A DNA stretch of 64,000 nt from Dehalococcoidia bacterium. Its GTDB lineage: Bacteria > Chloroflexota > Dehalococcoidia > Lucifugimonadales > SAR202-VII-2. Positions 1,733 to 61,482 of the stretch are shown piece after piece. Location: NCBI GenBank assembly GCA_965226745.1, contig CBDDDS010000003.1:230520-294519 (forward strand), in the 5' to 3' direction. Both the position numbers and the translations under genes were made by a program. How positions within the stretch are numbered: the first letter of the stretch is position 1; every line of letters begins with the position of its first letter. Under the pieces are notes generated by a model. The model was given only the letters and a program-made list of their open reading frames with translations, made no database searches and was not told the DNA's origin.

Positions 1733-2420
1733 CGCGGGCCGCTTTTCGGGCTTTCCCCGGGGGAGCGCCTACACACCCGTCCCCGACGCTCTTCTGGGCC
1801 CCCTGCTGGAAGCGATTGATGACCTGGGCGAGTTGAAAACGGTCCTCAGGGCCGTCCACCTCTTCCATCGGAAGAAGGGCTCGCCGCGGTTGGTGACCCA
1901 GAAGGAGCTGGAGGCGGACCCGGTGCTCCGCCGCACATTTGCCGGTCATGCAAGCGTTGAGGAAGAGATCGGCAGGGCGCTGGACGAGGCTGTCTACGCG
2001 GGCCTGTTGCTGAGAACGAGGGTGGGGACGGGAGCGTCGTTGCAGACGGCCTTCGTGCTCAACAGCGAGACCGAGCGTCAGGCTCTGGAGGGACTGGACA
2101 AGGCTCGCATCGAGGCGCCGGCGCCGTTGCCGAACGAGGCCGCTGGTGAACCTACCCCCTCCGAAATCTTTACGCTCTACCAGGAGCACGTGGGGATGCT
2201 GACCCCGCTCATTGTGGACCAACTCAAGGACGCCGAGGGGCAGTACCCGGCTGCCTGGATACGCAGTGCATTTGTGGAGGCCGTGGAGCGCAACAAACGT
2301 AGCTGGCGTTACATCGCTCGGATTCTGGAGCGGTGGCGCGAGGAAGGGAGAGGTCATGGAGAGCCTGGGCGACATCCTGCGAAGAGCGACCCTAAGGCCT
2401 ACCTTCGGGGGTGGCAATAA
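1725..2420 (+). CDS. DnaD-domain / replisome-organizer-like protein
   Basis: ATG at 1725 overlaps the dnaB stop. The C-terminal ...AVERNKRSWRYIARILERWREEG resembles the DnaD C-terminal domain. The longer ORF from 1458 lies inside dnaB and was rejected. Confidence 0.55.
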   Translation: MSSAGRFSGFPRGSAYTPVPDALLGPLLEAIDDLGELKTVLRAVHLFHRKKGSPRLVTQKELEADPVLRRTFAGHASVEEEIGRALDEAVYAGLLLRTRVGTGASLQTAFVLNSETERQALEGLDKARIEAPAPLPNEAAGEPTPSEIFTLYQEHVGMLTPLIVDQLKDAEGQYPAAWIRSAFVEAVERNKRSWRYIARILERWREEGRGHGEPGRHPAKSDPKAYLRGWQ

Positions 2421-3774
2421 TCCTCCGGCGAATAGGACGGAGGAGGGGGAGTCGGCGTGCCAAATCTGCGGGGGACCCGGGTGGGTTACCCTGAACGTCG
2501 GCCTTGAAGACCCGCGTTTTGGGCAGGCCCAGCCATGCCGCTGCACGTCTATCCCCTTCGAGAAAGAGCGTCGCCAACGCTTCGCCAAGCTCAGCAACCT
2601 GGGGAGTCTCGAGCGCTTCACCTTCAGCGCCTTGGATGCCCCGGAGGGAATGCCGGATGCCCGGCAAAGCTTCGAAGTTGCCCTGGCGGCGGCCGTGGCC
2701 TACGCCTCCGCTGAGAAACTGACGGGCTGGTTCGTGCTGGCAGGCGCCGCGGCCACCGGTAGGACGCCGATGGCGGCGGCTATTGCCAACGCCGCCATGG
2801 AGAGGGGAGTGCGGGCCTCCTTCATGACGGCGCCGGACCTCTTGGACCACCTGCGAGGCGCCTTCGCTCCCCATAGTGAGTTGGCCTACGACGAGCTGTT
2901 CGAAGAACTCAAAAGCGTTCCCCTTTTGGTGCTGGACGATCTGGGCATCTACAGCGCGACTCCCTGGGCGCAGGAGAAGCTCTACCAGCTCTTGAACCGC
3001 CGCTATCAGGACAGGCTCCCCACCGTCATCACACTGGCCTGCGAATTGTCGGACCTTGATGAGCACCTTCGGGTGCGGCTAGCGGACACCAGTGTGAGCC
3101 AGGTTCACCGCCTTGCCGATCCCGAGTCTGCGCCCGCGTTCCAACAACTAGGCAACCTTCCTCAGGAAATGCGGGCTCGAATGACCTTCGAACACTTCAA
3201 CTGGAAGGGTGGTCCGGGGACGGACGAGACGGGCAGGGGAACGCTGGAGGCGGCTTTCCAGCACGCCCAGCGCTACGCCGAAAACCCCGAGGGCTGGGTG
3301 GTGTTCACCGGAGTTCCGGGGTGCGGCAAGACCCATTTGGCAGTGGCCATTGCCGGCGAGCGAGTGAAACGAGGCTACCCCGTGTTTTTTGTCATGGCGC
3401 CGGATCTGCTGGACCACCTGCGCCAGACGTACAGCCCGGACAGCCGGGTGTCCTATGACCGGCTGTTCGACCAGGTGAAGAACGCACCTCTGTTAATACT
3501 GGATGATCTCGGTATGGAGCTAGGAACCCCCTGGGCCAAGGAGAAGCTCTATCAACTCTTCGCCCATCGGCACAACCTTCGCTTGCCCTTAGTCATTACC
3601 AGCAGCACTGTGGAACGGAAGGAATTCCCACCTGAGATACGCTCCAGACTCCAGGATGGAGACCTTGTCGTTACCCACACCATCGCCGCTCCAGACTATC
3701 GAGACAAGGGCGCCGGGCGCTACCGCGCCCGGCCTGCCGGGCAGGACCGCCGCCCCAAGCGTCCCCAGCCCTGA
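2356..3774 (+). CDS. helicase-loader-like protein with N-terminal zinc ribbon and two tandem DnaC/IstB-type AAA+ modules
   Basis: MESLGD start overlaps the upstream gene. Zinc ribbon CQICGGPGW...PCRC. Module 2 has Walker A GVPGCGKTH and Walker B LLILDDLG. Module 1 is a clear paralog but reads GAAATGRT (no Walker Lys), with LLVLDDLG. Confidence 0.75.
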   Translation: MESLGDILRRATLRPTFGGGNNPPANRTEEGESACQICGGPGWVTLNVGLEDPRFGQAQPCRCTSIPFEKERRQRFAKLSNLGSLERFTFSALDAPEGMPDARQSFEVALAAAVAYASAEKLTGWFVLAGAAATGRTPMAAAIANAAMERGVRASFMTAPDLLDHLRGAFAPHSELAYDELFEELKSVPLLVLDDLGIYSATPWAQEKLYQLLNRRYQDRLPTVITLACELSDLDEHLRVRLADTSVSQVHRLADPESAPAFQQLGNLPQEMRARMTFEHFNWKGGPGTDETGRGTLEAAFQHAQRYAENPEGWVVFTGVPGCGKTHLAVAIAGERVKRGYPVFFVMAPDLLDHLRQTYSPDSRVSYDRLFDQVKNAPLLILDDLGMELGTPWAKEKLYQLFAHRHNLRLPLVITSSTVERKEFPPEIRSRLQDGDLVVTHTIAAPDYRDKGAGRYRARPAGQDRRPKRPQP

Positions 3775-3820
3775 GCTTCTCTTGACGCTTGAACCGCCTC
3801 ATGCTTCACCGACGAGGGAG

Positions 3821-4156
3821 ATGTACTGCGTTTTCTGCGAGATCATAGCCGGGAAACTGCCGGCCAGGTTCTTCCACGGGGAAGAGGACTTGGTGGTCAT
3901 AGCGAACCAGTTGACCTGGGCGCCCGTGATGCTTCTGGTGATTCCCCGGGAACACATGACGCAAGAGCAGCTGTGGTCTTCCGCCCTCTTGCAACGGATG
4001 GGGCAGGTGGCGGTGCAGATGGGTCAGCGGCACTGTCCCGGCGGCTTCAGACTGCTCTCCAACTTCGGCCGGGACGCCATGCAGAGTCAGCCTCACGGGC
4101 ACGTCCATGTCCTGGGCGGCATGTTCCTGGGTCCGTACGTGCGGCGGGAGTCCTAG
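3821..4156 (+). CDS. HIT family protein
   Basis: MYCVFCEIIAGK N-terminus and histidine triad HGHVHVLGG. Confidence 0.8.
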   Translation: MYCVFCEIIAGKLPARFFHGEEDLVVIANQLTWAPVMLLVIPREHMTQEQLWSSALLQRMGQVAVQMGQRHCPGGFRLLSNFGRDAMQSQPHGHVHVLGGMFLGPYVRRES

Positions 4157-4237
4157 CCGCCTCGCTATGTCAGGCGCTGACGCCGGTGGTATGATGGGCC
4201 GCGCCTCATGCTCCGCTCTTGAGTGTTGGGCCGGACC

Positions 4238-4654
4238 ATGGAACGACCTTCCTTTAAGGAGACCGCCTTGACCGAACAGAGGAGCAAACGATCGCTGCCG
4301 GCGCGCCCTGAGGGGTCCTACCACCCGGCCCCGTCCGTTGACGGCGTTATCGCCGGCGGGTTCATCTTTCTTGGGGCGCTCCGCGGCAAAGGGGACACGA
4401 CGGCAGAGCAAGCGCGCTCCGCTTTCGAGACGCTCAAGTCGCTGTTGGCGCCGGCGGGGGCCAGGTTGGAGGATGTGGTCAGGGTGACGGTGTACTTCCA
4501 GGACATGGCTTACCGCTCGGAGTTTCAAAAGGTGTGGGTGGAGTGCTTCCCACAGAATCCGCCGGCCAGGGTGGCGCTGGGCGTCGCCAACGCCAGTGTC
4601 ACCCCGGACGGGAACTCGCGCTTCGTCCTGGAAGTCATTGCGCTGGAACCCTAG
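4238..4654 (+). CDS. RidA/YjgF family reactive-intermediate deaminase
   Basis: YjgF-like pattern (VRVTVYFQDM, ARVALGVA). An alternative GTG start lies at 4223. Confidence 0.75.
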   Translation: MERPSFKETALTEQRSKRSLPARPEGSYHPAPSVDGVIAGGFIFLGALRGKGDTTAEQARSAFETLKSLLAPAGARLEDVVRVTVYFQDMAYRSEFQKVWVECFPQNPPARVALGVANASVTPDGNSRFVLEVIALEP

Positions 4655-4774
4655 CGAGGTGGGCAGGCAGCGCCCCCTGACGCGGGCTTGCTGCGGTTCG
4701 ACGGCGCCGTGGGGCCGCTGCCGGACGGCGGTGCGACGGAACCACTGAGATCAGACACATCGAAGGAGGCCCTC

Positions 4775-5545
4775 ATGGCGGGAAGCTGGGGACTGGACGG
4801 CAAGGCTGCATTCATTACCGGCGTGGGCGGCATGGGACGGGCGACGGCCCTCGCCTTTGCTGAGGAGGGCATCCCCGTGGCCGTGACGGACGTCGATCCG
4901 TCGGTGGCGGAGACCACGGCTGGGCTTGTGGCCGACAAGGGCGGCAGGGCGTTGCCCCTAACGTTGGACGTTACGGACTCGTCGGCTGTTGAAGAGGCCA
5001 TCGCCAGGGCCGGGGATGAGCTTGGCCCGATAGACTACCTGTTCAACACCGCTGGCATCGGCCACTACGCCCCTGTGACCGAGATGACCAACGAGGATTG
5101 GACGCGCATGGTGGAGGTGTGCCTGACCGGGACATTCTTCACCTGCCGCGCGGCGCTGCCCGGCATGATCTCCCGCGGCAGGGGGGCGATTGTCAACATC
5201 TCCTCCATGTTCGGGCAGACGGGGCAGGCCAACATGGTGCACTACTCGGCGGCCAAGGCGGGGGTTATGGGTTTGACGAAGGCGCTCGCCCGGGAAATGG
5301 CCGGGCACGGCATCCGGGTCAACGCCATCGCCCCCGGGCCCATCGATACGCCGCTCTGGCGCCGCGGCCTGGAGGGGAAGGACCTGGAGGATATGATGGA
5401 GGGTAGGAGACAGCCGGTGCCCATGAAACGGATTGGGCACATCAGCGAAATCGCCGACGCCGTGATGTACCTACTGAGCCCCGCCAGCAGCTACGTCACC
5501 GGGCAAATACTGCACGTCGGCGGCGGCGAGGTCACGGTCACTTAG
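4775..5545 (+). CDS. SDR family oxidoreductase
   Basis: RBS GAAGGAGG. Rossmann motif AFITGVGGMGRA, NISS, and catalytic YSAAK. Confidence 0.85.
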   Translation: MAGSWGLDGKAAFITGVGGMGRATALAFAEEGIPVAVTDVDPSVAETTAGLVADKGGRALPLTLDVTDSSAVEEAIARAGDELGPIDYLFNTAGIGHYAPVTEMTNEDWTRMVEVCLTGTFFTCRAALPGMISRGRGAIVNISSMFGQTGQANMVHYSAAKAGVMGLTKALAREMAGHGIRVNAIAPGPIDTPLWRRGLEGKDLEDMMEGRRQPVPMKRIGHISEIADAVMYLLSPASSYVTGQILHVGGGEVTVT

Positions 5546-5667
5546 GGCGTCCCTTCCGCTGGATGCGGGTCTCCCTTGGGGGTTTTGACACCCCGCGGGC
5601 CATGTGATACGTTCGCGTCGAACCTGATTCAACCTGTGAGGCGCGAAATTTGCCGGATGGGGAGGGC

Positions 5668-6567
5668 ATGATGACGACTCAGGTATCGGCGTCTGTTCAG
5701 CATTTCGACCATTCCGTTCTTCCATGTATGGACCTGTTTCGGGCGGAGCGCTTCTATACGGAAGTGATTGGGGGCGCGATGTTTCTGAAGCCCGGCATGA
5801 CCTTCCACGACCCCTCGGGGTTCAGCGAGGCGACGGGCAAGACGCATCCGCCCGGAACGTTCATCAAGTTTGGCCGCAACCACTTGGGCTTCTTCCTACA
5901 GTACGAGGTGCCCGTGTTCCCGGCGAAAGAGCCCGGCAGCGGCTATCCCTGCTGGGGTCTCTACGTGGCCGAGGAAGACTTCGACGACGTGGTGCAGCGG
6001 GCCCGCGACTTTCCGACGCTGGTTGGCCCCGTGCGTACGGAGGGCTATGCCGGCATTCCCATGCGCAGCGTCCGTCTCTCGGACCCGGACGGCAATAGCC
6101 TCGAGCTAGTGTCCGACCCCCGGGGCCGCTACGACGACTTCAAGGTCACAGGCATCAGCCACATGCATCTGGAAGCCGTAGACCTGGCCGCAACCGTCGA
6201 GTTCTATGGCCGCTACCTGGGACTCGACGCCGTGGGGGCGGATGAAGAGGCTGAGGTGGTGGCGCTTGGTCTTCCCAGCGGGCAACATCTGTTCATCCAC
6301 AGGGTGGACGAGGTCTCGCCGGCAACCATTGGGCCGTACTTCGGGCGGCATTGCGCCTACTACGTGGAGGACGACGCCTACCATGTCCTGGAGGGCCACC
6401 TGAGCGACGACAGCGTGGACCAGATTGACATGGTGCCCGGCTTGCGAAAGCCCGATGAGTTGGACACCTATTTCTTCGACCCCAGCGGGCTGTACATTCA
6501 GATAAAGAATGAAGACTCGCTGACCATGGCCCAGGGGCGGCCAAGATACCGGTACGTCACCATCTGA
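5668..6567 (+). CDS. two-domain VOC (glyoxalase/extradiol dioxygenase) family protein
   Basis: Two VOC-like modules (FDHSVLPCMDL..., GISHMHLEAVDL...). RBS GGGGAGGG lies before the ATG at 5668. Confidence 0.6.
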   Translation: MMTTQVSASVQHFDHSVLPCMDLFRAERFYTEVIGGAMFLKPGMTFHDPSGFSEATGKTHPPGTFIKFGRNHLGFFLQYEVPVFPAKEPGSGYPCWGLYVAEEDFDDVVQRARDFPTLVGPVRTEGYAGIPMRSVRLSDPDGNSLELVSDPRGRYDDFKVTGISHMHLEAVDLAATVEFYGRYLGLDAVGADEEAEVVALGLPSGQHLFIHRVDEVSPATIGPYFGRHCAYYVEDDAYHVLEGHLSDDSVDQIDMVPGLRKPDELDTYFFDPSGLYIQIKNEDSLTMAQGRPRYRYVTI

Positions 6568-6716
6568 GGCCGTCCGGCTCGGATGGTCCCGGCGCCCCCT
6601 GGGTGTTCTGAGAGGGCGCGAAAGCTGAAACGAGGGGTGTGGGACGTTCCCGCACCCCTCGTTTGCAAGAGCCGGGGATGGGCCGGCTACACGACACAAG
6701 GAGCCTGTTGACGCCG

Positions 6717-7331
6717 ATGATCCACGAAATACGAACCTACGATATCCGCGTTGGGACGGTGGCTGAGTATGAGCGCCGGCTGGTCAAGGCCCTTCCCTTC
6801 AGCGAGAAGTATTGCCCGCTGGGCGGCTTTTGGCGCACCGACATCGGCCCGTTGAATCAGGTCATCCACATCTGGCCCTACGATGACCTTGACCAGCGAA
6901 TGGCCGCCCGCACCGCCCGCTTCACGGATCCCTACTGGCCGCCCGACGTGGACGGCATGGTGCTTCGCCAGGCGTCGGAGTTGGGGCATCCGCTTTCGGC
7001 CATGGGACCGCTGAAGCAGGGCCACCTGGGGAACGCCTATGAGTTGCGCTACTACTGCTACGTGCCCAGGGACATCAAAGAAGCGATCGAGCGCTGGGAG
7101 GAGATTCTTCCCTACCGTCAGAAGTTTGCTACCCTGGCGGGCGCCTGGCGCATAGACGTGGGAGAGCTGGACAAGGTGGCCGTCATGTGGGCCTACGACA
7201 GCTTCAATCAGCGGGATGAGCAGATGAAGGCGGCCAGCGAAGACCCGAAATACGCTTCCGGCACGAGCCACATTCTGGTGCGCAGGGAGAACAAGCTGAT
7301 GGTCCCGGCTGATTTCTCCCCGATGCGCTAG
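6717..7331 (+). CDS. NIPSNAP family protein (two repeats)
   Basis: IHEIRTYDIRVGT...GFWRTDIGPLNQVIHIW and YELRYYCYVP...GAWRIDVGELDKVAVMW. Confidence 0.8.
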   Translation: MIHEIRTYDIRVGTVAEYERRLVKALPFSEKYCPLGGFWRTDIGPLNQVIHIWPYDDLDQRMAARTARFTDPYWPPDVDGMVLRQASELGHPLSAMGPLKQGHLGNAYELRYYCYVPRDIKEAIERWEEILPYRQKFATLAGAWRIDVGELDKVAVMWAYDSFNQRDEQMKAASEDPKYASGTSHILVRRENKLMVPADFSPMR

Positions 7332-7347
7332 TCGGGGGCCCACCGCT

Positions 7348-8280
7348 GTGGCGGAGCTCGACAGTCTTGCGCTCATCGCCAACCCGGTCTCCTGTGGAGG
7401 CAAGGGACGGCGCGGCGCAACGAAGGTGGCCCAACTTCTGACCGAGCAGGGCGTCGACTTCACGCTGCATTGGACCCAGGCCCGGGGCGACGCCGAGGTG
7501 ATGGCCCGGAAGGCTGTGGAGGAGGGGCGACGCCGCATCGTCGCTTGCGGCGGCGACGGTACGGTTCACGAGGTTGTGAACGGGATCATGGCAGCCCGGG
7601 CCGGAAGCAAGGTTACCCTTGGGCTGGTTCCCCTGGGCCAGTGCAACGACCTAGGAAGAGCGCTGGCCATTCCTCGCGACCTGCCCGGCGTGGTCAGCAC
7701 GCTGCTGCGCGGGACGACGCGCACCATTGATTTGGGACAGGCAGGCGACCGGTACTTCTCCACGGTGATGACGCTGGGTTTCGATAGCGTGGTGAATGAG
7801 TTCGTGGCGGGTGGCGGTGTGCCGAGGTTCGTCAAGGGGACGGCGTCGTACGTGTGGGCGATTTTTGCCAAGCTGTTTCAGTATACGGGCGTTTGGGTCA
7901 CCATGGAGGGAGATTTCGGCCGGTTCGAGGGACAGGTGTTCCTTGCGGCAACCGGCAACACGCCCACCTATGGGGGGCGCATCAAGATAGTGCCCCCGGC
8001 TGTGATAGACGACGGCCTGCTGAATATCTGCCTTGTTCACAGCGTTTCGAGGTTCACGATACTGAGCATGCTCCCGATGGTGTTTTCTGGGAGGCATGTA
8101 AACCATCCGGCTGTGGAATTGAAGCAGGTGTATCGGATGGAGATTGATGCTCGGGAGCCCATCTCGCTGTGGGCCGACGGCGAGTTCGTGGCGAGGACAC
8201 CCACGACAGTGAGGGTGGCGCCGCGAGCGCTGCAGGTGCTTGTGCCGGCGGGCGGGCCGTTTCAGGCGCCGAGGCTGTGA
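7348..8280 (+). CDS. diacylglycerol kinase family lipid kinase (YegS-like)
   Basis: GTG start. DAGK catalytic motif ACGGDGTVHEVVNG. Confidence 0.85.
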   Translation: MAELDSLALIANPVSCGGKGRRGATKVAQLLTEQGVDFTLHWTQARGDAEVMARKAVEEGRRRIVACGGDGTVHEVVNGIMAARAGSKVTLGLVPLGQCNDLGRALAIPRDLPGVVSTLLRGTTRTIDLGQAGDRYFSTVMTLGFDSVVNEFVAGGGVPRFVKGTASYVWAIFAKLFQYTGVWVTMEGDFGRFEGQVFLAATGNTPTYGGRIKIVPPAVIDDGLLNICLVHSVSRFTILSMLPMVFSGRHVNHPAVELKQVYRMEIDAREPISLWADGEFVARTPTTVRVAPRALQVLVPAGGPFQAPRL

Positions 8281-10773: not shown

Positions 10774-10992
10774 GATTTACCTCCGGAGCGCGCGCCTCTC
10801 GAATCGCCGCCTTATGGTACGTCCTATGGGCCGCCATTGTCATCTCGACGCGGGCACAGGGGCGGGGGATGGGGTGGATTCCCGCCTGCGCGGGAATGGC
10901 TGCTGGCTGCGATGGCGTTCGGCGGTTGCTTTTGGATGCCCCTTCCCTGGAAGCTAGGGAATCTCTGAACAAGCCCCCCACCCACGGCGGAA

Positions 10993-11213
10993 CCTCAGTC
11001 CCTGCCCTTGTACGCGGGGAAGGCTAGGAAGCGTCGGGACGCCCCCCAACCTCCTCCCCCAAGCAGGGTGCAGGGGGCTGCGCCCCCGCCGGGGGTAACA
11101 GGGGTGTCCCCCTGTACCCAAAAACGTCGGAGGGCGGAGCGGGCGGGATGGCGGCGCAGGCCAAGCCAAACCCTCGGCTGAAGTAGGGCGCAGGCCACAA
11201 CAAGACCCTCCCC
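10993..11213 (-). repeat. GC-rich mosaic hairpin repeat (R family), upstream flank of element copy A
   Basis: Reverse complement of the unit seen at 42521-42745, 47408-48070, 50003-50350 and 61508-61660. Contains the GTACAGGGGGA-n-TCCCCCTGTAC type hairpin. Confidence 0.8.
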
Positions 11214-11337: not shown

Positions 11338-11705
11338 TTGCAAAATCCGAACACTTGTGCTATAATATCCCCATGAAGTGGGCCGGGGGCCCGCTTCTCC
11401 TTCTCGGAGCCTGCCGCATAACGTATGTACTGGGGGCTAACCACAGAGAATCCCCCTGTGGCAGGGGCGCTGAGGGAACAACCCTAGGGGCAAGACCGTC
11501 CGAGGAAGGCTGGGACCGGAGCGAATGCCATTGTAAGGCACAGGCTCTTTGGAGCCATCCCGCTCCGTAACGAATCGTAACAACTAGGTAACGGTTCGTA
11601 ACGGCTCCGTAACGACTCGTAACAGCTTTGTAACGGCCTGTAACGCCTTTGTAATGGCTCCGTGCCTGCAAACCCCGAAATCCGGCTGACAAACGTTACA
11701 AAGCC
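11338..11705 (+). ncRNA. copy A of dispersed promoter + structured core + phased-repeat element (candidate novel ncRNA)
   Basis: -35 TTGCAA (11338-11343), 17-nt spacer, extended -10 TGTGCTATAAT (TATAAT 11361-11366). Conserved core to ~11566, repeats 11567-11661, and 3' module CGTGCCTGCAAACCCCGAAATCCGGCTG. Confidence 0.6.
11567..11661 (+). repeat. phased short repeats, GTAAC core, 9 units
   Basis: GTAAC (last unit GTAAT) starts are spaced 10,11,10,11,10,11,10,11 nt, giving a 21-nt super-period. Confidence 0.9.
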
Positions 11706-15998: not shown

Positions 15999-18074
15999 GT
16001 GATACAACTATCGGGGAGGTCAAGATATCGAATGATAGCGAGGAATGATTTGAAGGTAGAGTTCTCAAGGCTGACCTCCGATGATCTAGGCGCCGTCGAC
16101 GACTTGATGAAACGCAATAGCCGAACTCTTGGCTTTCTGCCGACTGAGGCGCTCATCGACTACCTTCACAAGAGACGCGTCTTGGGTGCCAAGATTGGAG
16201 GTGATAGGCTCGTTGGGTACCTGCTCTATGCGCCTATTCAGAGTCGCTTTCGGATTGTTCAACTCTGCGTCTCGCAAGAATTCAGAGGCTACGGCATCGC
16301 GAGCCACCTCCTTGAAGAACTCAAGGACGTTGCTACGACGCAGTCCGCCATAACTCTCAGCTGCCGCCGGGACTTCCCTGCACATTACATGTGGCCGAAA
16401 TTAGGCTTTGTTTCAATTGGGGAAAGGCCGGGCCGTTCCGTAGCTGGGCACCTCTTAACACTTTGGCACCTCCCCCTGAACCCAGCCAATCAAATGGACC
16501 TGGGACTGTTCAAGGCACAAACATCAGATGAGACCATCGATGTCATCATTGATGCCCAAGTATTCTTTGAGCTGTCTAAGCCAGACAGTGATGAGTCGGA
16601 AGGGTCCAAGGCTCTGCTATCTGACTTTTTGGTAGATTCCCTCAACCTTTGGATCACCGATGAATTGCTCAACGAAATCCATCGGAGCGACGACCCCGAG
16701 CAACGACGGGCAGGGCGATCCCGAATACAGCAATTCCCACAGGTGACATATTCTCCACGCTTGGTTGATGACTTCTATAGCCGCTTGATGACTACCCTGC
16801 CCGACCGCACACCCAGCCAAGTCTCCGACATTAAGCATCTAGCGAAGGCTGCCTCTTCCGATGTGAATGTCTTTGTCACCAGAGATCAGTCTCTACTGAG
16901 AAAGGCACAGGAGATTGCAGACTTAACGAATCGCCGGGTGCTGTCCCCAACAGAGTTGATAATTGAGCTCCACGAACTCCTCGAAGGACAGTCCTATGGA
17001 CCTCACCGCGTTTCTGGTCTTCGTCTCGGATGGTATCGCTTTACCGTCCGCGACCTCGCATCTCTTCCGATCGACTCTTTCCTTAACGAAGGAGAAGGGC
17101 AGAGGCAGTTGAGGAGGGAACTGGATCGCTACCTAGTTCGTCCCAACAACTACCAGTGTGAGCTACTCAAAGCGGAGGACAACGATGTCGCAATCCGAAT
17201 CATCCCCACCACTCCTAAGGCGACAGTCACTGTACCCTTGGCCAGAGTAGCGCGCACCGCCGAGCGATCGCTGTTCGGACGCTTCCTGATCGCAGACACT
17301 ATTGCAAAGGCGGTAGACAACAACCAGGACATGGTTGAGTTCGAGCTGTCCGGGCTTACTTCCTCGTTGATACCGGACCTCATGGAGATGGGATTCACAA
17401 GATGCAGGTATACCTTTGCGAAGTTCTGTTTCTCACGCTGCCTCGATCGGGAAGATGCTCTCCAGACGATTGCGACTCTATCACCTGAATTGGAGGCTGC
17501 ATATGACGATGTGTCAGACCTCGAACTTGAACGCTACTGCGCACCTGTGAGTTTAGATGCAGACCAGAACTATTTTCTGGTTCCGATTCGACCAGGTTAT
17601 GCTATCAGCTTGATCGACAGAGCGCTGTCGTCTAGTGACATGTTCGGTGGAGACCCTTCTGTCTTGTTGCGGTGGGAAAACGTCTATTACCGAAAGGCTG
17701 CTACGTCGAGGAAGATTCTGAAGGCCCCTGGGCGCATTCTCTGGTACGTGAGTCGCAGTCAGAAACAGATCGTAGCAGTATCCCATCTTGACGAAGTGGT
17801 GGTCGATACCGCCAAAGTACTTTTCAGGAGGTTCAAGAAGTTCGGGATACTGGGATGGGAGGAACTCTACGGAATGTGCGCCGGTGATACTTCGATGGAA
17901 TTGATGGCGCTGCAGTTCTCCCATACGTTTGTCTTTAGAAGGAGGATTCCATTGAAGGCGGTGCGGATGGTCTATGATGAGGAAGGGAGTGGCTTGACTG
18001 TGCGACTCCCGACACACATGCCGGCGAGCAGATTTCAGAAGCTGTTTAAGCTAGGCTTTCCAGATTGCTCATGA
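15999..18074 (+). CDS. multidomain protein: GNAT acetyltransferase - PIN nuclease - second (degenerate) GNAT-like - C-terminal ASCH/PUA-like domain
   Basis: 691 aa in an AT-richer island. GNAT motif A QLCVSQEFRGYGIASHLLEEL...LGFVSIG. PIN acidic residues (DVIIDAQVFFEL, ITDELLNEI, SDVNVFVTRDQSLL). The C-terminal region (ILWYVSRSQKQIVAVSHLDEVVV...) parallels the downstream ASCH protein. Start is uncertain (GTG 15999 or ATG 16032). Confidence 0.6.
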   Translation: MIQLSGRSRYRMIARNDLKVEFSRLTSDDLGAVDDLMKRNSRTLGFLPTEALIDYLHKRRVLGAKIGGDRLVGYLLYAPIQSRFRIVQLCVSQEFRGYGIASHLLEELKDVATTQSAITLSCRRDFPAHYMWPKLGFVSIGERPGRSVAGHLLTLWHLPLNPANQMDLGLFKAQTSDETIDVIIDAQVFFELSKPDSDESEGSKALLSDFLVDSLNLWITDELLNEIHRSDDPEQRRAGRSRIQQFPQVTYSPRLVDDFYSRLMTTLPDRTPSQVSDIKHLAKAASSDVNVFVTRDQSLLRKAQEIADLTNRRVLSPTELIIELHELLEGQSYGPHRVSGLRLGWYRFTVRDLASLPIDSFLNEGEGQRQLRRELDRYLVRPNNYQCELLKAEDNDVAIRIIPTTPKATVTVPLARVARTAERSLFGRFLIADTIAKAVDNNQDMVEFELSGLTSSLIPDLMEMGFTRCRYTFAKFCFSRCLDREDALQTIATLSPELEAAYDDVSDLELERYCAPVSLDADQNYFLVPIRPGYAISLIDRALSSSDMFGGDPSVLLRWENVYYRKAATSRKILKAPGRILWYVSRSQKQIVAVSHLDEVVVDTAKVLFRRFKKFGILGWEELYGMCAGDTSMELMALQFSHTFVFRRRIPLKAVRMVYDEEGSGLTVRLPTHMPASRFQKLFKLGFPDCS

Positions 18075-18553
18075 CCACAGCGTTGCGATCCTTGATCATC
18101 TCGCTGAAGCCGTGTTATGCCGACTTGTTATTTGAGGGTTTGAAGAAGGTTGAACTTCGGCGACGGATTGCTTCCCAGATAAATGACCGAGACGTGTTCA
18201 TTTATGTTTCCAGCCCAGTTAGGGAATTGCGTGGAGGCTTCCGTGTCGGTCAGGTATGGGAAGGATCACCCGACGCCGTGTGGAACAGTGTGGCTGAACT
18301 GGCGACTGTCGATAGACGGGTATTTGACGCCTATTTCCAAGGTCGGACCGTCGCTTATGCAATAGAAATCACGAATGTGTGGGAATACCAAAGTCCGGTG
18401 GGTCTCAGTTGGTTGAGAGATCGGTTCGAGAATTTTGTTGTTCCGCAGTCGTGGCGATATGCCAAACCTGAAGAGCGAGAGGCCTTCCAGAAGATGAGGG
18501 GACGAGCAAATGAAGAGGCCCAAAATGAGATCATATTGGTTGAAACTACCTAA
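18065..18553 (+). CDS. ASCH domain protein
   Basis: Overlaps the upstream gene by 10 nt. LIISLKPCYADLLFEGLKKVELRRR, DVFIYVSSPVRELRGGFRV, and PQSWRY are typical of ASCH/PUA-like folds. Confidence 0.65.
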   Translation: MLMTTALRSLIISLKPCYADLLFEGLKKVELRRRIASQINDRDVFIYVSSPVRELRGGFRVGQVWEGSPDAVWNSVAELATVDRRVFDAYFQGRTVAYAIEITNVWEYQSPVGLSWLRDRFENFVVPQSWRYAKPEEREAFQKMRGRANEEAQNEIILVETT

Positions 18554-18651
18554 CAGGTGATAAGACGAGTAAGCTGTGCTCACCGCCGGCGTTTCCTGAC
18601 ACCGAGCGAAGGAATGGATTCCCGGCACCGCAATCCGGTTGAAAGGCAGAT

Positions 18652-20127
18652 ATGACAGATAATTCCGCGGACTCCAACAAAGTGCACAAGGAATCGGACA
18701 CGGACACGCTTCCGTCCGTGATCGATAAGCTTGGCGAAATCGCGAGAGCCGCGAGTGGCGGTTCTTTTGTATTTCGAGATGAGCCGAAATACTACCCGGA
18801 AATTTCATCTAGCCTTTACCGAGAGTATAGAACGATGCTCATACCTCTTGGTGATGATGGGTTCGATATCCGTCATGTGGAAGGCGAGATTCTTACCGCC
18901 GCCGCCCGCTACGTTGACGACCTTACACCAGAGGACCTACTAAGCCAGCTCCAACACTACGGTTATCCTACAAACCTGGTTGACTTCACTGCTGACTATC
19001 TCAATGCGCTCTTCTTCGCCTGCCCCAGTGAGCCGAAAAACGATGGTCGCGTAATACTCCTTAACACTGACACCAACCTACTCTTGCGCATGCGGGCCCC
19101 TGCGAACCGTATCAAGGCACAGAAGAGCGTTTTCGTTAGCCCTCCTACAGGGGTCGTCAATCCGGGCCATATTATCTGCTTCCCGAGCGCTCTAAAACTT
19201 CCCATGCTTGAATATCTCAGTTCTTATCACGACATTTCAGCGCAGACGATCCACGACGATATTCAAGGCTTTATCAAGAACGCCGAAATTCACCGAAGTG
19301 CGTACGCGGAGTTTCATATGGGCGGGCTTCACTTGAGCCAAGGACATTTTGAAGAAGCTCTTAGACATTACAACCGTTCAATTGAGTTGAACAGTTACCA
19401 ACAAGCTTCATTCGCAAACCGAGCAGTAACGTTCATAAAAATGAAGAAATACGGTGATGGCATTCAAGATTTCTCTCGAGTGATCACCCTGGATCGCCAT
19501 GATGCGCGGGCGTACCAGGAAAGGGAACGGGCTTACTGGGACAGCGGACAACCGGAGTTGGGGGAGCAGGACTATAGCGAGGCGATACGGCTTGACGAAC
19601 GGCTGGAGGGTGCCTACATTGGGCGTTCTGCCTGTCGTGTAAATCGTAGGGACATCGACGGGGCGATGCAAGACTTAAACTTCGTAATCGACGTGAATCC
19701 CAAGAGCAGCGCAGCATACAAGGGAAGGGGTGTCGCCTTTATGACGGTTGGCAATTACCGATCGGCCCTGGAGGACATAAGTAGTGCGATAGAGATTGAC
19801 CCAACCGATCCGTTCGCCTACATGGGCCGAGCTGTAGTCCACTTTAATATGGGACAATCCCAGGATGCCGTAGATGACTTCGGCAGGCACCTCAGTTTAG
19901 GTGGTGACGACCCGGCCGAGGCCTACTTTCTCCGGGGTATTGCTCTGGTCACCTTGGGAAAGTTTGAGGAAGCGCGTGCAGACCTAGAGACCGCCTTGGG
20001 GCAGGATCCATTTGTTGCTAAACGGGTGATCGCGAAAGTAAGCGACCTCGTCGGCGGGAGCGACAGCCTTATATTGCAGGATGAGGTGCCTGCCGACATT
20101 CTAGAGATGCTAAAACCTGCAGAATAG
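18652..20127 (+). CDS. FRG domain - TPR repeat protein
   Basis: N-terminal FRG-domain hallmarks (FVFRDEPKYY..SSLYRE, LQHYGYPTNLVDFT, RIKAQKSVFV), followed by about seven TPR repeats (aa ~220-470). Confidence 0.75.
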   Translation: MTDNSADSNKVHKESDTDTLPSVIDKLGEIARAASGGSFVFRDEPKYYPEISSSLYREYRTMLIPLGDDGFDIRHVEGEILTAAARYVDDLTPEDLLSQLQHYGYPTNLVDFTADYLNALFFACPSEPKNDGRVILLNTDTNLLLRMRAPANRIKAQKSVFVSPPTGVVNPGHIICFPSALKLPMLEYLSSYHDISAQTIHDDIQGFIKNAEIHRSAYAEFHMGGLHLSQGHFEEALRHYNRSIELNSYQQASFANRAVTFIKMKKYGDGIQDFSRVITLDRHDARAYQERERAYWDSGQPELGEQDYSEAIRLDERLEGAYIGRSACRVNRRDIDGAMQDLNFVIDVNPKSSAAYKGRGVAFMTVGNYRSALEDISSAIEIDPTDPFAYMGRAVVHFNMGQSQDAVDDFGRHLSLGGDDPAEAYFLRGIALVTLGKFEEARADLETALGQDPFVAKRVIAKVSDLVGGSDSLILQDEVPADILEMLKPAE

Positions 20128-20176: not shown

Positions 20177-20567
20177 TTGCAAAATAAGAACGAGTGTGCT
20201 ATAATGTCCCCATGAAGTGGGCAGCCGGCCCGCTTCTCTTTCTCGGAGCCTGCCGCATACGTTTAGCACTGTGGGCTAACCATAGAGAATCCCCCTGTGG
20301 CAGGGGCGCTGAGGGAACAACCCAAGGGGCAAGACCCTCCGAGGAAGGTTGGGACCGGAGCCAATGCCGTTATAAGGCACAGGCTGCTTGGAGCTATCCC
20401 GCTCCATTACGGTTCCGTTACGGTTCGTTACGGGGCCATTACGGTTCCTTTACAGATCCCTTACAGCTTCATTACTGCTAGTTACGCCTTGTTACGCCCT
20501 CTGTTACGGCTTCGTGCCTGCAACCCCCGAAATCCGGCTGGCCAGTGTAACAACAAACAATCAAAGG
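20177..20567 (+). ncRNA. copy B of dispersed promoter + core + phased-repeat element
   Basis: -35 TTGCAA 20177-20182, 17-nt spacer, TGTGCTATAAT (TATAAT 20200-20205). Core to 20405, repeats 20406-20513, and 3' modules CGTGCCTGCAACCCCCGAAATCCGGCTG and ACAAACAATCAAAGG. Confidence 0.6.
20406..20513 (+). repeat. phased short repeats, (G/A/T/C)TTAC core, 10 units
   Basis: TTAC starts are spaced 11,10,11,11,11,11,10,10,12 nt. The core is the reverse complement of the GTAAC core of copies A, C and E. Confidence 0.9.
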
Positions 20568-20705
20568 CCTAACCTGCCCCCGGCAAATCCCCCCATCCCT
20601 TCCCTCCACTACGGGCGGAGGTTACGATGGGAGTCTCCCGCCTGGCCTTGGACCCAACGTCCCTGGGAAAGAGAGCTGGCGGGGAGCGGGACAGCGGGAA
20701 GGAGC

Positions 20706-40432: not shown

Positions 40433-41719
40433 TTACAGCCACACGCCGATTTCGGCCCGGTGGTTGAGTTCCGAGAGCGCCCAGACCAGGGCGTCGAGGC
40501 GGTCCGGGCTGGCGCCGCTTTCGGGGATCCAGGTGCAGAGCTGGTCCTCGAGGTCTTCCAGGCCGGGGCCGACGTGGAAGACCTTCCCCTGCTCGTAGAG
40601 TGCGGCGATGGGCTCGGCCCGGACGAGCTTGCCTCGGCTGGCGCGGACGGCCTTGTAGGGAATGGATGCGTCCACCGTGCGGAGGACGGACTCCACGAGC
40701 TCGCCGCCGTTGTTGACCTCGCCGATGATGCGGTCGGCGGCGAACTCCCGGTGCGCCCGCACGGCCCGCCGCGCCCACCCGTCGGGCGACAGCCTGCACG
40801 AGCGGTCGGCGAGGACGTAGAAGCTGCCGTCGACGCCGCGGCCGGCAACGACGATGCCGGTCTCGTCGGCGCTGTCGTTGTAGGAGACGGCGGGGTCGAT
40901 GGCGACGACGACGCGGAGGAGGTCCGGGGCGTCGGGGATGGACTGGAAGACCTTGCGTTGCCAGAGGGCGCCTTCGACGTCGTCAAGAAGCTCGGCGTGG
41001 ACCTCCTGGCGGCCCAGGCGGGTCCCCTCGTAGCGGGCGGCGATCCGTTGGAGGAAGGCCTCGGAGAGGTTGGCCCGGTTCTCGTAGGTGGCGCCGCGAG
41101 TGACCGCCGTTGACGGCGAGGCGAGGAGCTCGCGGATGAGGCGAACGGGCCGGGGGGTGGTGGTGACGACGGTGCGCGGGGGTTGGCCCAAGCGGAGGCC
41201 GAACTGGAGCATGTCCCAGGCTTCCGGGTAGCGCCAGGCGGCCATCTCGTCGCACCAGGCCGCATGGAACTGGGGCCCGCGCAGGCGGTCGGGCTCGTCG
41301 GCGGAGAAGGTGGTGGCGACGACGCCGTTGGGCCAGGTGAGGCGGCGCTTGGACGGCTCATAGGCGGGGCGCTCGTCGGGGTGGCCCACGGAGAGGATGC
41401 CGCTGTGGCCCTCGACCATGACGTCGCGAGCGTCGGCGGCGGTAGGGGCGACGAGGGCAATGCGGCGGGCGTTGTTGGAAGCGGCCTGGGCGCGGACCCA
41501 TTCGGCGCCGGTGCGGGTCTTGCCCCAGCCTCGGCCGGCCAGGACGAGCCAGACAAGCCAGTCGCCGTCGGGGGGAAGCTGGGAGGGGCGGGCCCAGGTG
41601 GGCCAGTCCCACTCCAGGGACTCAGCCGCTCCCGGCGCCAACTCCCGTATCACGCTCTTCCTCAAGGCGGGCTGCGATGCTATCGATTGCGCGCTGGAGT
41701 TCGGCTCTTGCATCCTCAT
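40433..41719 (-). CDS. phage/GTA-type terminase large subunit (apparently intact, orphan)
   Basis: 428 aa. Walker A LAGRGWGKTRTGAEWV. WCDEMAAW. Nuclease region VVAIDPAVS...DETGIVVAG. The start may be an internal GTG, because the ORF overlaps the upstream gene by 98 nt. Confidence 0.85.
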   Translation of the reverse strand: MRMQEPNSSAQSIASQPALRKSVIRELAPGAAESLEWDWPTWARPSQLPPDGDWLVWLVLAGRGWGKTRTGAEWVRAQAASNNARRIALVAPTAADARDVMVEGHSGILSVGHPDERPAYEPSKRRLTWPNGVVATTFSADEPDRLRGPQFHAAWCDEMAAWRYPEAWDMLQFGLRLGQPPRTVVTTTPRPVRLIRELLASPSTAVTRGATYENRANLSEAFLQRIAARYEGTRLGRQEVHAELLDDVEGALWQRKVFQSIPDAPDLLRVVVAIDPAVSYNDSADETGIVVAGRGVDGSFYVLADRSCRLSPDGWARRAVRAHREFAADRIIGEVNNGGELVESVLRTVDASIPYKAVRASRGKLVRAEPIAALYEQGKVFHVGPGLEDLEDQLCTWIPESGASPDRLDALVWALSELNHRAEIGVWL

Positions 41720-42083
41720 CCCTCATCCGTGCTGACTTTTCTGCGGGGTCGCCGGGTTTGGAGTGCCGGACGACGGCGCGCTCGACGATCCACTCGGCGA
41801 CGCTGGTGTCTTTCTCCGCGAGCGCGTCGCTTATCACCTCGACGGCCTCCCCAGCGAGCTGGAGCAGTGCGCCTTCAACCTCCTGCCGATGCGAGCCCGG
41901 CGACGCCAGCGCCGGGTCCGGTCCAGCCTGGGGGTCCGTTCCGTCGCTGCGCTTTGCGTGTTCTGCGCGGTGGGCGGCCACCCGGCAGCGCCCGGAACAG
42001 TAGATAGCGTCTCTCCGCAGAGCAGGGGGGAAGCGGGAGGCGCACCAAGGGCAATAGCGGAGAGAGCGCAAGCTGTAGTTCAT
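41622..42083 (-). CDS. zinc-ribbon protein, possible small terminase/DNA-binding partner
   Basis: 153 aa. N-terminal CPWC...YCSGRCRVAAHR zinc ribbon and an acidic helical C-terminus. Immediately upstream of TerL. Confidence 0.45.
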   Translation of the reverse strand: MNYSLRSLRYCPWCASRFPPALRRDAIYCSGRCRVAAHRAEHAKRSDGTDPQAGPDPALASPGSHRQEVEGALLQLAGEAVEVISDALAEKDTSVAEWIVERAVVRHSKPGDPAEKSARMRDEDARAELQRAIDSIAARLEEERDTGVGAGSG

Positions 42084-42127
42084 ACCACCTCAAGGCGACA
42101 ACAGTCAGAATTCTGGGCGGTGAACGG

Positions 42128-42464
42128 GGCTTTGTAACGTTTGTCAGCCGGATTCGGGGTTTGCAGGCACGGAGCCATTACAAAGGCATTACGAGGCATT
42201 ACAAGCCGTTACACAGTCGTTACGGAGCCGTTACAGAGCGGGATGGCTCCAAGGAGCCTGTGCCTTACAACGGCATTCGCTCCGGTTCCAGCCTTCCTCG
42301 GAGGGTTGTGGGCCTGGGGATGTTCCCCAGACCCTCCTGCCACAGGGGGATTCTCTGTGGTTAGCCCCCAGTGCATACGCTATGCGGCAGGCTCCTAAGG
42401 AAGAGAAGCGGGCCTAGGACCTACTTCATGGGGGTACTATAGCACAACTGTTCTTATTTTGCAA
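42128..42464 (-). ncRNA. copy C of dispersed promoter + core + phased-repeat element
   Basis: On the minus strand: -35 TTGCAA (42459-42464), 17-nt spacer, TGTGCTATAGT (-10 at 42436-42441), conserved core, repeats 42171-42234, and 3' module CGTGCCTGCAAACCCCGAATCCGGCTG. It ends 44 nt before the ATG at 42083. Confidence 0.6.
42171..42234 (-). repeat. phased short repeats, GTAAC/GTAAT core, 6 units
   Basis: The minus strand reads GTAACGGCTCC GTAACGACTGT GTAACGGCTT GTAATGCCTC GTAATGCCTTT GTAATGGCTCC. Confidence 0.9.
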
Positions 42465-42520: not shown

Positions 42521-42745
42521 GTTTTGTCTTGGCCTGCGCCCTCCATCAGCGAAGGGTCTGGCTTGGCGTGCGCCGCTATCCCGCCCGCACCACCCTCCGA
42601 CGTTTTTGGGTACAGGGGGACTCCCCCTGTACCCCCGGCGGGGGCTGCGCCCCCTGCACCCTGCTTGGGGGGAGGGAGAGGGCTTGCGTTGGCGCGTCCG
42701 GGCGCTTCCTAACCTGCCGCTGGGTACGGGGGTAGGGAGAGAGGG
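42521..42745 (+). repeat. R-family mosaic hairpin repeat, promoter-proximal flank of copy C
   Basis: TTTTGTCTTGGCCTGCGCC...GTACAGGGGGACTCCCCCTGTAC...GGGGGCTGCGCCCCC...CTTCCTAACCTGCC. Confidence 0.8.
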
Positions 42746-42912
42746 CTTACGGTGGGTGTGGGGGCTGCATTCAGCGGTCGACTCGTATGCGGAGCACGCC
42801 ATGCTCGTTGGGGAGGGTGGCTTTGGTCCGGTCGGCCATCGGCTCCCAGGGCGACCAATCCAGAGGGAATTACATACCTAATTACACACGGGGCTGAGCC
42901 CTGGATTGAAGA

Positions 42913-43636: not shown

Positions 43637-43638
43637 CG

Positions 43639-49567: not shown

Positions 49568-49947
49568 GGATGGGCAGGGTTCCCCCGGCTTCGGTCTCTT
49601 CCTTTGATTGTATGTGTTCCTGCTTTTTCTTCTCCCCCGGCGCCCCGTAGTCGTGGAGCCGTCGCGTAGCCGTCGTGGAGCTGTCGTGGAGCTGTCGCGT
49701 AGCTGTCGCGGATGCGTCGCGTAGCCGGATGGCTCCAAAGAGCTTGCCTTACAACGGCATTCGCTCCGGTCCCAGCCTTCCTCGGACGGTCTTGCCCCTA
49801 GGGATGTTCCCTCAGCGCCCCTGCCACAGGGGGATTCTCTATGGTTAGCCCCCAGTACATACGTTATGCGGCAGGCTCCAAGGAAGAGAAGCGGGCCGGG
49901 GGCCCACTTCATGGGGAGACTATAGCACAAAGGTTCGCATAATGCAA
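49568..49947 (-). ncRNA. copy D of dispersed promoter + core + phased-repeat element
   Basis: On the minus strand: -35 TTGCAT (49942-49947), 17-nt spacer, TGTGCTATAGT (-10 at 49919-49924), conserved core, repeats 49651-49727, and a 3' module shared with copy E (…ACATACAATCAAAGG…GGGGGAACCCTGCCCATCCC). Confidence 0.6.
49651..49727 (-). repeat. phased short repeats, exact 11-nt period x7, GTCG(T/C)G core (plus-strand reading)
   Basis: GTCGTGGAGCC GTCGCGTAGCC GTCGTGGAGCT GTCGTGGAGCT GTCGCGTAGCT GTCGCGGATGC GTCGCGTAGCC. Confidence 0.95.
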
Positions 49948-50002
49948 TAGGCGTGGGGCATAGGCTTCCCCCGCGGCGGGGGGCAGGGATTTGGGATGGG
50001 TG

Positions 50003-60930: not shown

Positions 60931-60966
60931 TCTAAACGGGGGCGTGTTGCGGGGTCTAGGGAACCT

Positions 60967-61036
60967 CGAACCTTGGGTTCCCTTCGCCTTCCTTCAGCGG
61001 AGGGTTTGTCTTGGCCTGCCAACGGGCGCGGGGGCG
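60967..61036. repeat. R-family repeat fragment
   Basis: CCTTCAGCGGAGGGTTTGTCTTGGCCTGCCAACGGGCGCGGGGGCGGGG, matching 50270-50310. Confidence 0.7.
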
Positions 61037-61482
61037 GGGATGGGCAGGGTTCCCCCGGCTTCAGCCTCATTCTTTGATTGTTTGTGATTCTTTGATTGTT
61101 TGTGCGCCTGCTTTTTCTTCTCCCGTAGGCGTGGAGCCGTTACAAAGGCGTTACAAGCTGTTACAAGGGCGTTACGTTACGAGCCGTTACGAGCCGTTAC
61201 GAGTCGTTACACAGTCGTTACGGAGCCGTTACTGATCTTACGAGCCGTTACGGAGTTGGGCGGCTCCTAAAGAGCCTGTGCCTTACAGCGGCATTCTCTC
61301 CGTTCCCGGCCTTCCTCGGAGGGTCTTGCCCCTCGGGTTGTTCCCTCAGCGCCCCTGCCACAGGGGGACTCTCCATGGTTAGCCCCCAGTACATACGTTA
61401 TGCGGCAGGCTCCGAGAAAGAGAAGCGGGCCTGGGGCCCACTTCATTGGGGGTACTATAGCACACCCGTTCGTATTTTGCAA
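61037..61482 (-). ncRNA. copy E of dispersed promoter + core + phased-repeat element
   Basis: On the minus strand: -35 TTGCAA (61477-61482), 17-nt spacer, TGTGCTATAGT (-10 at 61454-61459), conserved core, repeats 61139-61251, and a 3' module shared with copy D that includes an 18-nt tandem duplication (61069-61104). Confidence 0.6.
61139..61251 (-). repeat. phased short repeats, GTAAC core (GTTAC on plus strand), 12 units
   Basis: Spacing is 9-11 nt, with one 5-nt doublet (GTTACGTTAC). Confidence 0.9.

Follow-up and report, generated by a model that had tools for sequence, protein, structure and literature searches.

Five loci and the gene behind one of them

A 64,000-nucleotide stretch of DNA from a Dehalococcoidia bacterium (contig CBDDDS010000003.1 of assembly GCA_965226745.1; hereafter the window, by which we mean the whole stretch analysed) carries five loci, here called copies A to E, that share one architecture: a predicted promoter, a GC-rich core of ~195 nt revealed by alignment of the five copies, a tail of short words spaced 10 or 11 nt apart, and a 3' module. 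A model that read the window from its letters alone (the sequence-only reading) had placed the loci and their strands correctly: the pattern TTGCA(A/T)-17 nt-TATA(A/G)T matches exactly five sites in the 64 kb, at 11338 and 20177 on the forward strand and at 42464, 49947 and 61482 on the reverse strand. The blocks GGAGCCTGCCGCATA and CCCCCTGTGGCAGG each occur exactly five times in the window, always at these loci, and the core similarity first noticed by eye is borne out by identities to copy A of 86.9-89.9% for copies B-E over ~236-238 nt of promoter and core. The extents first assigned to the loci are real, but the unit is larger, and they take in no more than its inner part. As had also been claimed, TTGCA(A/T), a 17-nt spacer and the extended -10 element TGTGCTATA(A/G)T are found in five of five copies, and a promoter scan recovers the copy-A site where 0.1 would be expected by chance in the region (shuffles). 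An extended -10 of the same type, TGTGCTACAAT, belongs to the transfer-messenger RNA (tmRNA) gene of a sister genome, OZ253584.1, and a near-identical promoter lies upstream of a portal operon in L118 (L-numbers denote fetched loci). To judge from these likenesses, the module promoter is of the host's strong, sigma-70 type, and it probably fires to give a noncoding transcript.

Among the matches listed in a pattern scan of one genome per species, the element is present in a single record, OZ253584.1, a 3.09-Mb Dehalococcoidia metagenome-assembled genome (MAG) to which the window genes are 92-96% identical where the two are syntenic; the pattern matches in other phyla are chance. By blastn, OZ253584.1 holds at least 58 copies that are 76-95% identical to copy A. 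Eight tandem pairs of copies, ~600 bp apart, were seen. No related sequence was found in plasmid and phage collections (blastn), in viral contigs (pattern scan) or in Joint Genome Institute (JGI) metagenomes, where 31 pattern matches were all chance. The family is, as far as these searches indicate, confined to a narrow clade.

Copy C leads directly into an open reading frame (ORF) for a 153-aa zinc-ribbon protein, whose N-terminus is an arginine-rich treble clef and whose C-terminus is helical and conserved. Homologs number 35, at 55-86% identity, and come from contigs of other MAGs and, as paralogs, from the window's genome and OZ253584.1. We fetched nine homolog contigs of related Dehalococcoidia MAGs (L113-L121), and the same promoter and leader stand directly 5' of the gene in all nine, making 10 of 10 loci when copy C is counted, with a GAGGTG-N-ATG junction conserved at every one. 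The sequence-only reading had proposed a stand-alone noncoding RNA or iteron family; at the 10 zinc-ribbon loci the module is instead a 5' untranslated leader. An MmgE/PrpD gene lies upstream in the window, L113, L114 and L119, and an HtrA-like gene lies downstream in the window and L121; because these flanking genes are shared, the locus appears to be old and vertically inherited. The gene order in L118 (zinc-ribbon gene, terminase large subunit, an 83-aa gene, portal) puts the zinc-ribbon gene in the small-terminase position, and gene position is the one feature that marks its product as a candidate small terminase. In L113, L119 and L121 the leader and the zinc-ribbon gene persist beside a degraded large terminase. 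A complete prophage at copy C was considered and rejected: the large-terminase gene is followed by host genes for HtrA, an ECF sigma factor and a proton-pumping pyrophosphatase, so the locus is not an intact prophage.

The ends of the larger unit are seen in L044, a segment of OZ253584.1 that is syntenic with window positions 4152-8229 (96% identity) and 2820-4156 (83% identity) and carries 904-906 extra bp between the two blocks, with a promoter-core-tail module inside them. Its junctions read CTAG followed by GGAATCTCTGAACAAGC on one side and GCTTGTTCAGAGATTCC followed by CTAG on the other, and the window counterpart is a single CTAG; this presence/absence polymorphism with precise boundaries is a single case, L044 against window 4152-4156. 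The 17-nt terminal inverted repeats (TIRs) are perfect in L044. Both are carried, with at most three mismatches, by nine of the ~58 copies, in units of 519 to 1803 bp, and the promoter adjoins the same distinguishable end in all nine. Nearly every end is flanked by CTAG (TTAG at two left ends), which fits a 4-bp YTAR duplication and also a TA duplication within CTAG. The terminal repeat matches the end of Escherichia coli IS5 at 12 of 16 positions, as checked on a real IS5 copy with a CTAA duplication, and IS5 duplicates a YTAR tetranucleotide, CTAG being the commonest (PMC5493358). The minimal units, of 519 bp (L020) and 524 bp (L049), are almost all module and have no conserved ORF, and among the longer variants L054 has terminal repeats around a leader and a zinc-ribbon pseudogene, while L077 and L003 carry fragments of the gene. 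Within the window, copy A has the left repeat only, copy E a degenerate right repeat only, and copies B, C and D none. A search of seven of the nine native contigs, L113-L118 and L121, found no terminal repeats flanking the leader-gene unit; L115 and L121 each have one stray end of this type 3' of the leader. [quoted passage not shown] A mobile promoter serving downstream genes was ruled out: of 55 copies, 37 have a convergent gene 3' of them and 18 a co-directional one, and the unit is therefore not a promoter donor for its neighbours.

The interpretation that we favour, at odds of roughly three in four, is that the five loci are the promoter and leader of the zinc-ribbon gene, with copy C native and copies A, B, D and E spread by an IS5-type MITE. 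The module would consist of a strong sigma-70-type promoter, an untranslated segment of ~195 nt, 10/11-nt repeats in variable number and a 3' module, and its native role would be that of promoter and 5' leader of the zinc-ribbon gene in a phage-derived packaging cassette, where the leader probably acts in cis on the zinc-ribbon and terminase genes. In the Dehalococcoidia lineage of the window and OZ253584.1, this leader would have been captured between IS5-type terminal inverted repeats and then multiplied across the chromosome as a non-autonomous transposon. Mobilisation would be in trans, with an IS5-group DDE transposase cutting at the 17-nt repeats and inserting at CTAG with target duplication, and copies A, B, D and E would be leader-only copies, now partly decayed.

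Several points weigh against this interpretation. One or both terminal repeats are missing from over half of the copies, four of the five window copies among them. The ~0.6 Mb of fetched loci yielded no autonomous IS5 whose terminal repeats match. Two IS5-family elements beside copies (in L061, and in L004, which is the same region as L036) are ~1.2 kb long and encode transposases of ~324 aa; as parents of the MITE they were rejected, having GAGACCTTTGC ends of their own and lying inserted in a hairpin loop of the MITE. The zinc-ribbon protein has no match in Pfam, NCBIfam or PDB and weak ones in PHROG, and its AlphaFold model is poor (predicted local distance difference test, pLDDT, 55). Copies were found through their core sequence, which biases the census towards intact cores. 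The direction of events may also have been the opposite one, with a MITE landing upstream of the gene in an ancestor; in L121 a MITE right end lies downstream of the cassette.

Table 1. Positions of the predicted features in the window (strand: +, forward; -, reverse)
Feature	Positions	Strand	Remarks
Unoccupied CTAG target	4152..4156	.	Sister genome has a 904-906-bp MITE with a leader copy here
CTAG target and left TIR of copy A MITE	10954..10974	+	GGAATCTCTGAACAAGC; exact TIR match
REP1 hairpin and REP2 module	10975..11213	+	Between left TIR and copy A
Copy A promoter	11338..11366	+	TTGCAA, 17 nt, TGTGCTATAAT
Copy A core	11373..11566	+	Predicted transcript start A11373
Copy A tail	11567..11655	+	Nine GTAAC/GTAAT words, 10-12 nt spacing
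Copy A 3' module, type 1	11656..11705	+	GGCTCCGTGCCTGCAAACCCCGAAATCCGGCTGACAAACGTTACAAAGCC
Copy B promoter	20177..20205	+	
Copy B core	20212..20405	+	
Copy B tail	20406..20507	+	~Ten xTTAC words
Copy B 3' module, type 1	20508..20566	+	With CAATCAAAG box (20558-20566)
Terminase large-subunit gene	40433..41719	-	Overlaps end of zinc-ribbon gene; Pfam Terminase_6N/6C; PHROG terminase large subunit
Zinc-ribbon gene (treble-clef, 153 aa)	41622..42083	-	Follows leader C
Copy C 3' module and pre-ATG region	42084..42176	-	GAGGTG ribosome-binding site
Copy C tail	42177..42234	-	Six GTAAC/GTAAT words
Copy C core	42235..42429	-	
Copy C promoter	42436..42464	-	Probable native locus
Copy D 3' module, type 2	49602..49660	-	With CAATCAAAG box
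Copy D tail	49661..49720	-	Six xCGAC words, period 11
Copy D core	49721..49912	-	
Copy D promoter	49919..49947	-	
Degenerate right TIR and CTAG of copy E MITE	60956..60975	-	GGTTCGAGGTTCCCTAG on element strand
Copy E 3' module, type 2	61072..61138	-	With two CAATCAAAG boxes
Copy E tail	61139..61251	-	~Eleven GTAAC words
Copy E core	61252..61446	-	
Copy E promoter	61454..61482	-	

The phased tail and its possible partner

The description of the tail as short repeats at 10-11 nt holds well beyond the window: over more than 55 copies there are 183 spacings of 11 nt and 77 of 10 nt, a mixture with a mean of ~10.7. Tails run from 58 to 113 nt in the five window copies, where both types of 3' module are present as claimed. 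The tail word is uniform inside a copy and different between lineages, with GTAAC, xTTAC, xCGAC, GCGAT and GTCNC types, and the downstream word of the type-1 3' module is GTTAC in 13 of 13 GTAAC-tailed copies and GTAAC or TTAAC in most copies with other tails. Such a pairing of tail word and fixed 3' word would allow an RNA helix of 10-11 bp to form and is just as compatible with an inverted protein site on DNA. The number of units ranges from ~3 to 14 at native loci, and close copies are separated by unit-sized insertions and deletions; the tail behaves like a minisatellite. The locus in L116 has lost the whole ~190-nt core and kept promoter, tail, 3' module and gene, and the zinc-ribbon gene is intact where the large terminase is degraded. 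From this core loss and the gene's outlasting of the terminase it follows that the tail and 3' region are more likely to be the functional partner of the gene. Our preferred guess, weakly supported as it is, is that the phased words may be binding sites for the zinc-ribbon protein, either on DNA, in the manner of a pac site, or on its own mRNA.

The strongest alternative to our interpretation takes this line further and places the function in the DNA, with the phased 10/11-bp words forming a pac-like or centromere/iteron-like array for the zinc-ribbon protein and the promoter and core being secondary; we hold this to be possible, though we would bet against it. Helically phased short repeats are used by phage SPP1 pac and plasmid R1 parC, and the mean spacing here, with its mixture of 10 and 11, agrees with such an array. 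The context is also of pac type, in that the phased repeats directly adjoin, on the upstream side, a gene pair in the small-terminase/large-terminase position, and extra words run up to the start codon at several native loci. The word type loosely tracks the N-terminus of the zinc-ribbon protein (HSRRYC with GCGAC/GCGAT, RSIRRC with GTAAC), although simple linkage could explain this association, and L116, with its tail and without its core, fits as well. A spacing of 10.7 nevertheless also agrees with an RNA helix, with 11 nt per turn, and a range of ~3-14 units beside an intact gene is what a neutral minisatellite would show. Partition and replication genes were not found nearby: for a plasmid iteron or a ParR-type centromere we found no linked replication-initiator or partition genes, the neighbours being metabolic genes or the terminase cassette. 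Finally, the persistence of leader and zinc-ribbon gene in L113, L119 and L121 despite a degraded large terminase argues against a pure packaging role.

RNA structure, mobility and coding status of the module

That the sequence-only reading recognised no known RNA class agrees with Rfam, which gave zero matches in the window at gathering thresholds and only matches with E > 3 in relaxed scans. Resemblances to 6S RNA, signal recognition particle (SRP) RNA, RNase P RNA, omega/bridge RNAs and retron RNA, and to type III toxin-antitoxin repeats and Rho utilisation sites, were considered and dropped for want of a supporting feature. The fold that RNAalifold suggests for the five copies has a 5' hairpin, a 3' domain and, besides these, a long enclosing stem and two inner hairpins. 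Copy A itself folds only modestly better than shuffles (z = -2.1), and 90.7% of the proposed pairs form across 55 paralogs, most helices being simply invariant. Compensatory cells among paralogs alone number 31 against 13.7 in shuffles (0/500). Once divergent orthologs are added, the covariation score is 0.085 against 0.075 (9/500 shuffles), compensatory cells fall to 14 against 9.8 (34/500 shuffles), and helices of the 3' domain are paired only 73-77%. The clearest covariation is seen in L114 and L120, whose GCCUGCCGCA/UGUGGCAGG helix has a C-G to U-A swap and also a G-U pair turned into G-C.

The differences between copies that had been taken to preserve hairpins do not sustain that claim, being mostly a few discrete alleles shuffled among paralogs, with formal pair counts barely above controls. 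One of the named hairpins, CCACAG...CTGTGG, is contradicted by the divergent orthologs L114 and L120: its 3' side becomes CTACGG there without compensation, and the C-G to U-A swap falls in a competing helix, GCCTGCCGCA/TGTGGCAGG. The discrete alleles sit at three hypervariable patches, to which the differences between copy E and its counterpart L047 are almost confined. This shuffling indicates gene conversion among paralogs, which can mimic covariation. We saw no association between variable-loop allele and tail word type, and private substitutions (103 singletons over 250 columns) are too sparse to judge purifying selection on single copies. Covariation support for the RNA fold is weak, with one C-G to U-A swap backing one helix, and a structured RNA from the module is plausible.

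These data bear on a second alternative, namely that the module is a free-standing family of trans-acting structured noncoding RNAs, with ~60 genes under their own promoters, and that the MITE and the zinc-ribbon gene are incidental. We consider it unlikely. Every copy does have a near-consensus promoter with an extended -10, blocks of 14-15 nt are nearly invariant in 55 copies that otherwise differ by 5-24%, and 88-91% of the proposed pairs form. Helix 3 has its C-G to U-A swap and helix 6 a CG/GC swap; these, a 64-nt hairpin-rich insertion at one helix tip in L114 and L120, and the noncoding character of the module point the same way. Set against this are the native module's position as a 5' untranslated region joined to an ORF, the covariation statistics given above, which are barely above controls, and the incomplete pairing of the 3' domain. 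A locus that loses its core and retains gene and tail (L116), variation in the form of shuffled alleles, as gene conversion among paralogs predicts, and restriction to a narrow clade are likewise hard to reconcile with such a family.

A third possibility is that promoter, core and tail together form a mobile element in their own right, which was nested repeatedly in an unrelated MITE. The missing terminal repeats of many copies, the variable-length REP1 and REP2 repeats (described below) between left repeat and promoter, and the eight tandem copy pairs could all be read in this way. Yet the module has one orientation relative to the distinguishable terminal repeats in nine of nine complete copies, the minimal complete units are only ~35 and ~95 nt longer than the module, it lacks both terminal repeats and a target duplication of its own, and the empty site is without the whole unit. 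Taken together, these observations make an independent element quite improbable.

The least probable alternative, which we give very little credence, is that the module is a leaderless mRNA encoding a lipoprotein-like small peptide (MKWAxGPLLFLGACRI...): the predicted start falls on the A of the ATG, 7 nt past the -10, and codons 1-16 show good conservation, look like a signal peptide with a lipobox and have their commonest substitutions at third positions, but past codon 16 at least three frames are used while the nucleotides stay conserved, stops or frameshifts fall inside those 16 codons in 7 of 59 copies, ORF length ranges from 2 to more than 100 codons, several copies have AGG or AAG in place of ATG, and variable sites are spread evenly over the codon positions (8, 10 and 7), with no clear third-position excess. 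The earlier arguments against coding, a frame destroyed in copy C and substitutions without third-position bias, hold and are strengthened by the comparison of 59 copies. With the frame given up beyond codon 16 in favour of at least three, with early breaks in seven copies and with variation even over codon positions, the module is, on this comparative evidence, noncoding.

No canonical intrinsic terminator was found after the tail on the sense strand.

Associated repeats, related elements and meaning

Two further repeats accompany the MITE. REP1 is a GC-rich, REP (repetitive extragenic palindromic)-like hairpin, CCCTGCCCC-loop-GGGGCAGGTTAGGAAGCG, that flanks REP2 and the MITE body; it is found at window 10990-11040 and 48000-48030 and 3' of the CAATCAAAG box in many loci. 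REP2, a second high-copy repeat of ~170 bp containing GGGTGCAGGGGGCGCAGCCCCCGCCGGGGGTACAGGGGGAGTCCCCCTGT...AAAACGTTGGAGGG, has 44-58 occurrences among the fetched loci and lies in the window at 10975-11213, 42530-42763, 47531-48035 (tandem units), 49948-50174 and 61483-61757. It is often tandem and usually stands just 5' of the promoter module, and it also occurs alone. IS5-family insertion sequences (ISs) with GAGACCTTTGC(G/A)TAAC ends, the end type of ISNme1 and of the BrickBuilt element discussed below, are present at L061 4197-5390, L004 5736-6952 and L115 1995-3207. The L061 and L004 transposases are intact and ~60% identical to each other, and both elements, neighbours of leader copies, lie within the same hairpin loop, the REP1 loop being their exact insertion point.

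Other features of the neighbourhood are recorded here. The sister-genome tmRNA gene (L023 3345-3699) lies directly downstream of a MITE copy. Copy B stands at the right edge of a low-GC island (15999-20127; 52% against 65%) that encodes a 691-aa protein with an apparent N-terminal acetyltransferase-like region, a 162-aa protein and a 491-aa protein with an FRG domain and tetratricopeptide repeats (TPR), and that may be a horizontally acquired defence island. The DNA 3' of copy B (20567-20872), including the start of a luciferase-like oxidoreductase gene, recurs with the leader elsewhere, over ~200-300 bp in L052 950-1583 and ~200 bp in L045 6743-7343, which suggests co-mobilised flanking DNA or segmental duplication. 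Divergent from copy D is a gene (50365-52908) for an 847-aa N6-adenine methyltransferase of Eco57I/MmeI type (type IIG-like). Between MmgE/PrpD and copy C lies a low-GC stretch with several small ORFs (42900-44600), the counterparts of which in L114 and L119 have HicA/HicB-like genes. A unit of ~567 bp, present once in the window (2820-3560) within a 520-aa ORF (2212-3774), forms about four tandem repeats in the sister genome (L044 5589-8000). A 2.4-kb segment of OZ253584.1 (L047 4900-7359) that is absent from the window (~61540) encodes a proline/threonine-rich secreted repeat protein and lies between the upstream REP2 of the copy E counterpart and the syntenic block. The window has no tRNA genes.

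Among described elements, the BrickBuilt MITE of Porphyromonas gingivalis comes closest: it combines IS5-like ends with a leader, a minisatellite of 23-nt units, a tail and promoter activity, and 4 of its 19 copies have both ends (PMC4596501, Klein et al. 2015). Both elements are species-restricted intergenic repeats with IS5-family-like terminal inverted repeats and an internal tandem minisatellite, and in both a minority of copies have both ends (9 of ~58 here). They differ in repeat length (10/11 nt here), in copy number (~19 against at least 58) and in their ends: those of BrickBuilt are of GAGACCTTTGCA type, which in the present genomes belongs to a different IS. BrickBuilt is also without a conserved core of ~195 nt and an identified source gene, both of which the present family has. 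Correia/NEMIS and other bacterial MITEs carry sigma-70-like promoters and alter transcription near their insertions (PMC10969869). The present unit, like Correia/NEMIS elements, is small, non-autonomous and promoter-bearing, but those elements are ~100-160 bp long and lie mostly upstream of genes, whereas ours is at least 519 bp, mostly faces the 3' ends of convergent genes and carries a whole gene leader. Its terminal sequence, like that of E. coli IS5, starts with GGAA and ends with GAACAAG, and its insertions lie at YTAR, mostly CTAG, with duplication, but unlike E. coli IS5 it is without a transposase gene.

Plant Pack-MITEs, and transduplication more generally, involve non-autonomous DNA transposons of the eukaryotic Mutator type that amplify captured fragments of host genes, and the longer variants of the present element, with their pieces of the zinc-ribbon gene (L054, L077, L003), are similar in kind. 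To our knowledge, there is no described bacterial counterpart that amplifies a promoter and 5' leader. In the pac region of phage SPP1, pacL and pacR hold phased repeats bound by the small terminase. The native leader is like SPP1 pac in having helically spaced short repeats just 5' of, and running into, the first gene of a terminase pair; it differs in that the small gene here encodes an unclassified zinc-ribbon protein, in that the system is known from sequence alone, and in that the array also stands at ~60 chromosomal sites without terminase genes.

What looked like a new RNA class would thus be a bacterial MITE that amplified the promoter and long leader of a specific gene about 60-fold, a MITE-borne leader that may be the bacterial counterpart of gene-fragment capture by plant Pack-MITEs. 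What would set it apart from known MITEs is the identifiable source locus of its leader, its 10/11-nt repeat unit, its size of at least 519 bp and its number of at least 58 copies. Two cautions follow for the analysis of such genomes: dozens of strong predicted promoters point into intergenic DNA, often at convergent genes, and alignments made of paralogs only can mimic RNA covariation. One further idea, which we regard as a long shot, is that leader and repeat array form a recognition platform, in DNA or RNA, for the zinc-ribbon protein, and that the MITE seeded ~60 extra platforms, either as scattered pac-like sites where packaging into a domesticated phage-like particle would begin or as plentiful decoy RNAs, made from the promoters, that would titrate the protein; if this is true, a transposon has wired a genome-wide network around a phage-derived gene. 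For soil Dehalococcoidia, the native locus represents an unstudied conserved unit, with a probable strong promoter, a leader of 290-530 nt with a phased minisatellite and a small zinc-ribbon gene, and this unit of leader and gene outlasts the decay of the neighbouring terminase gene.

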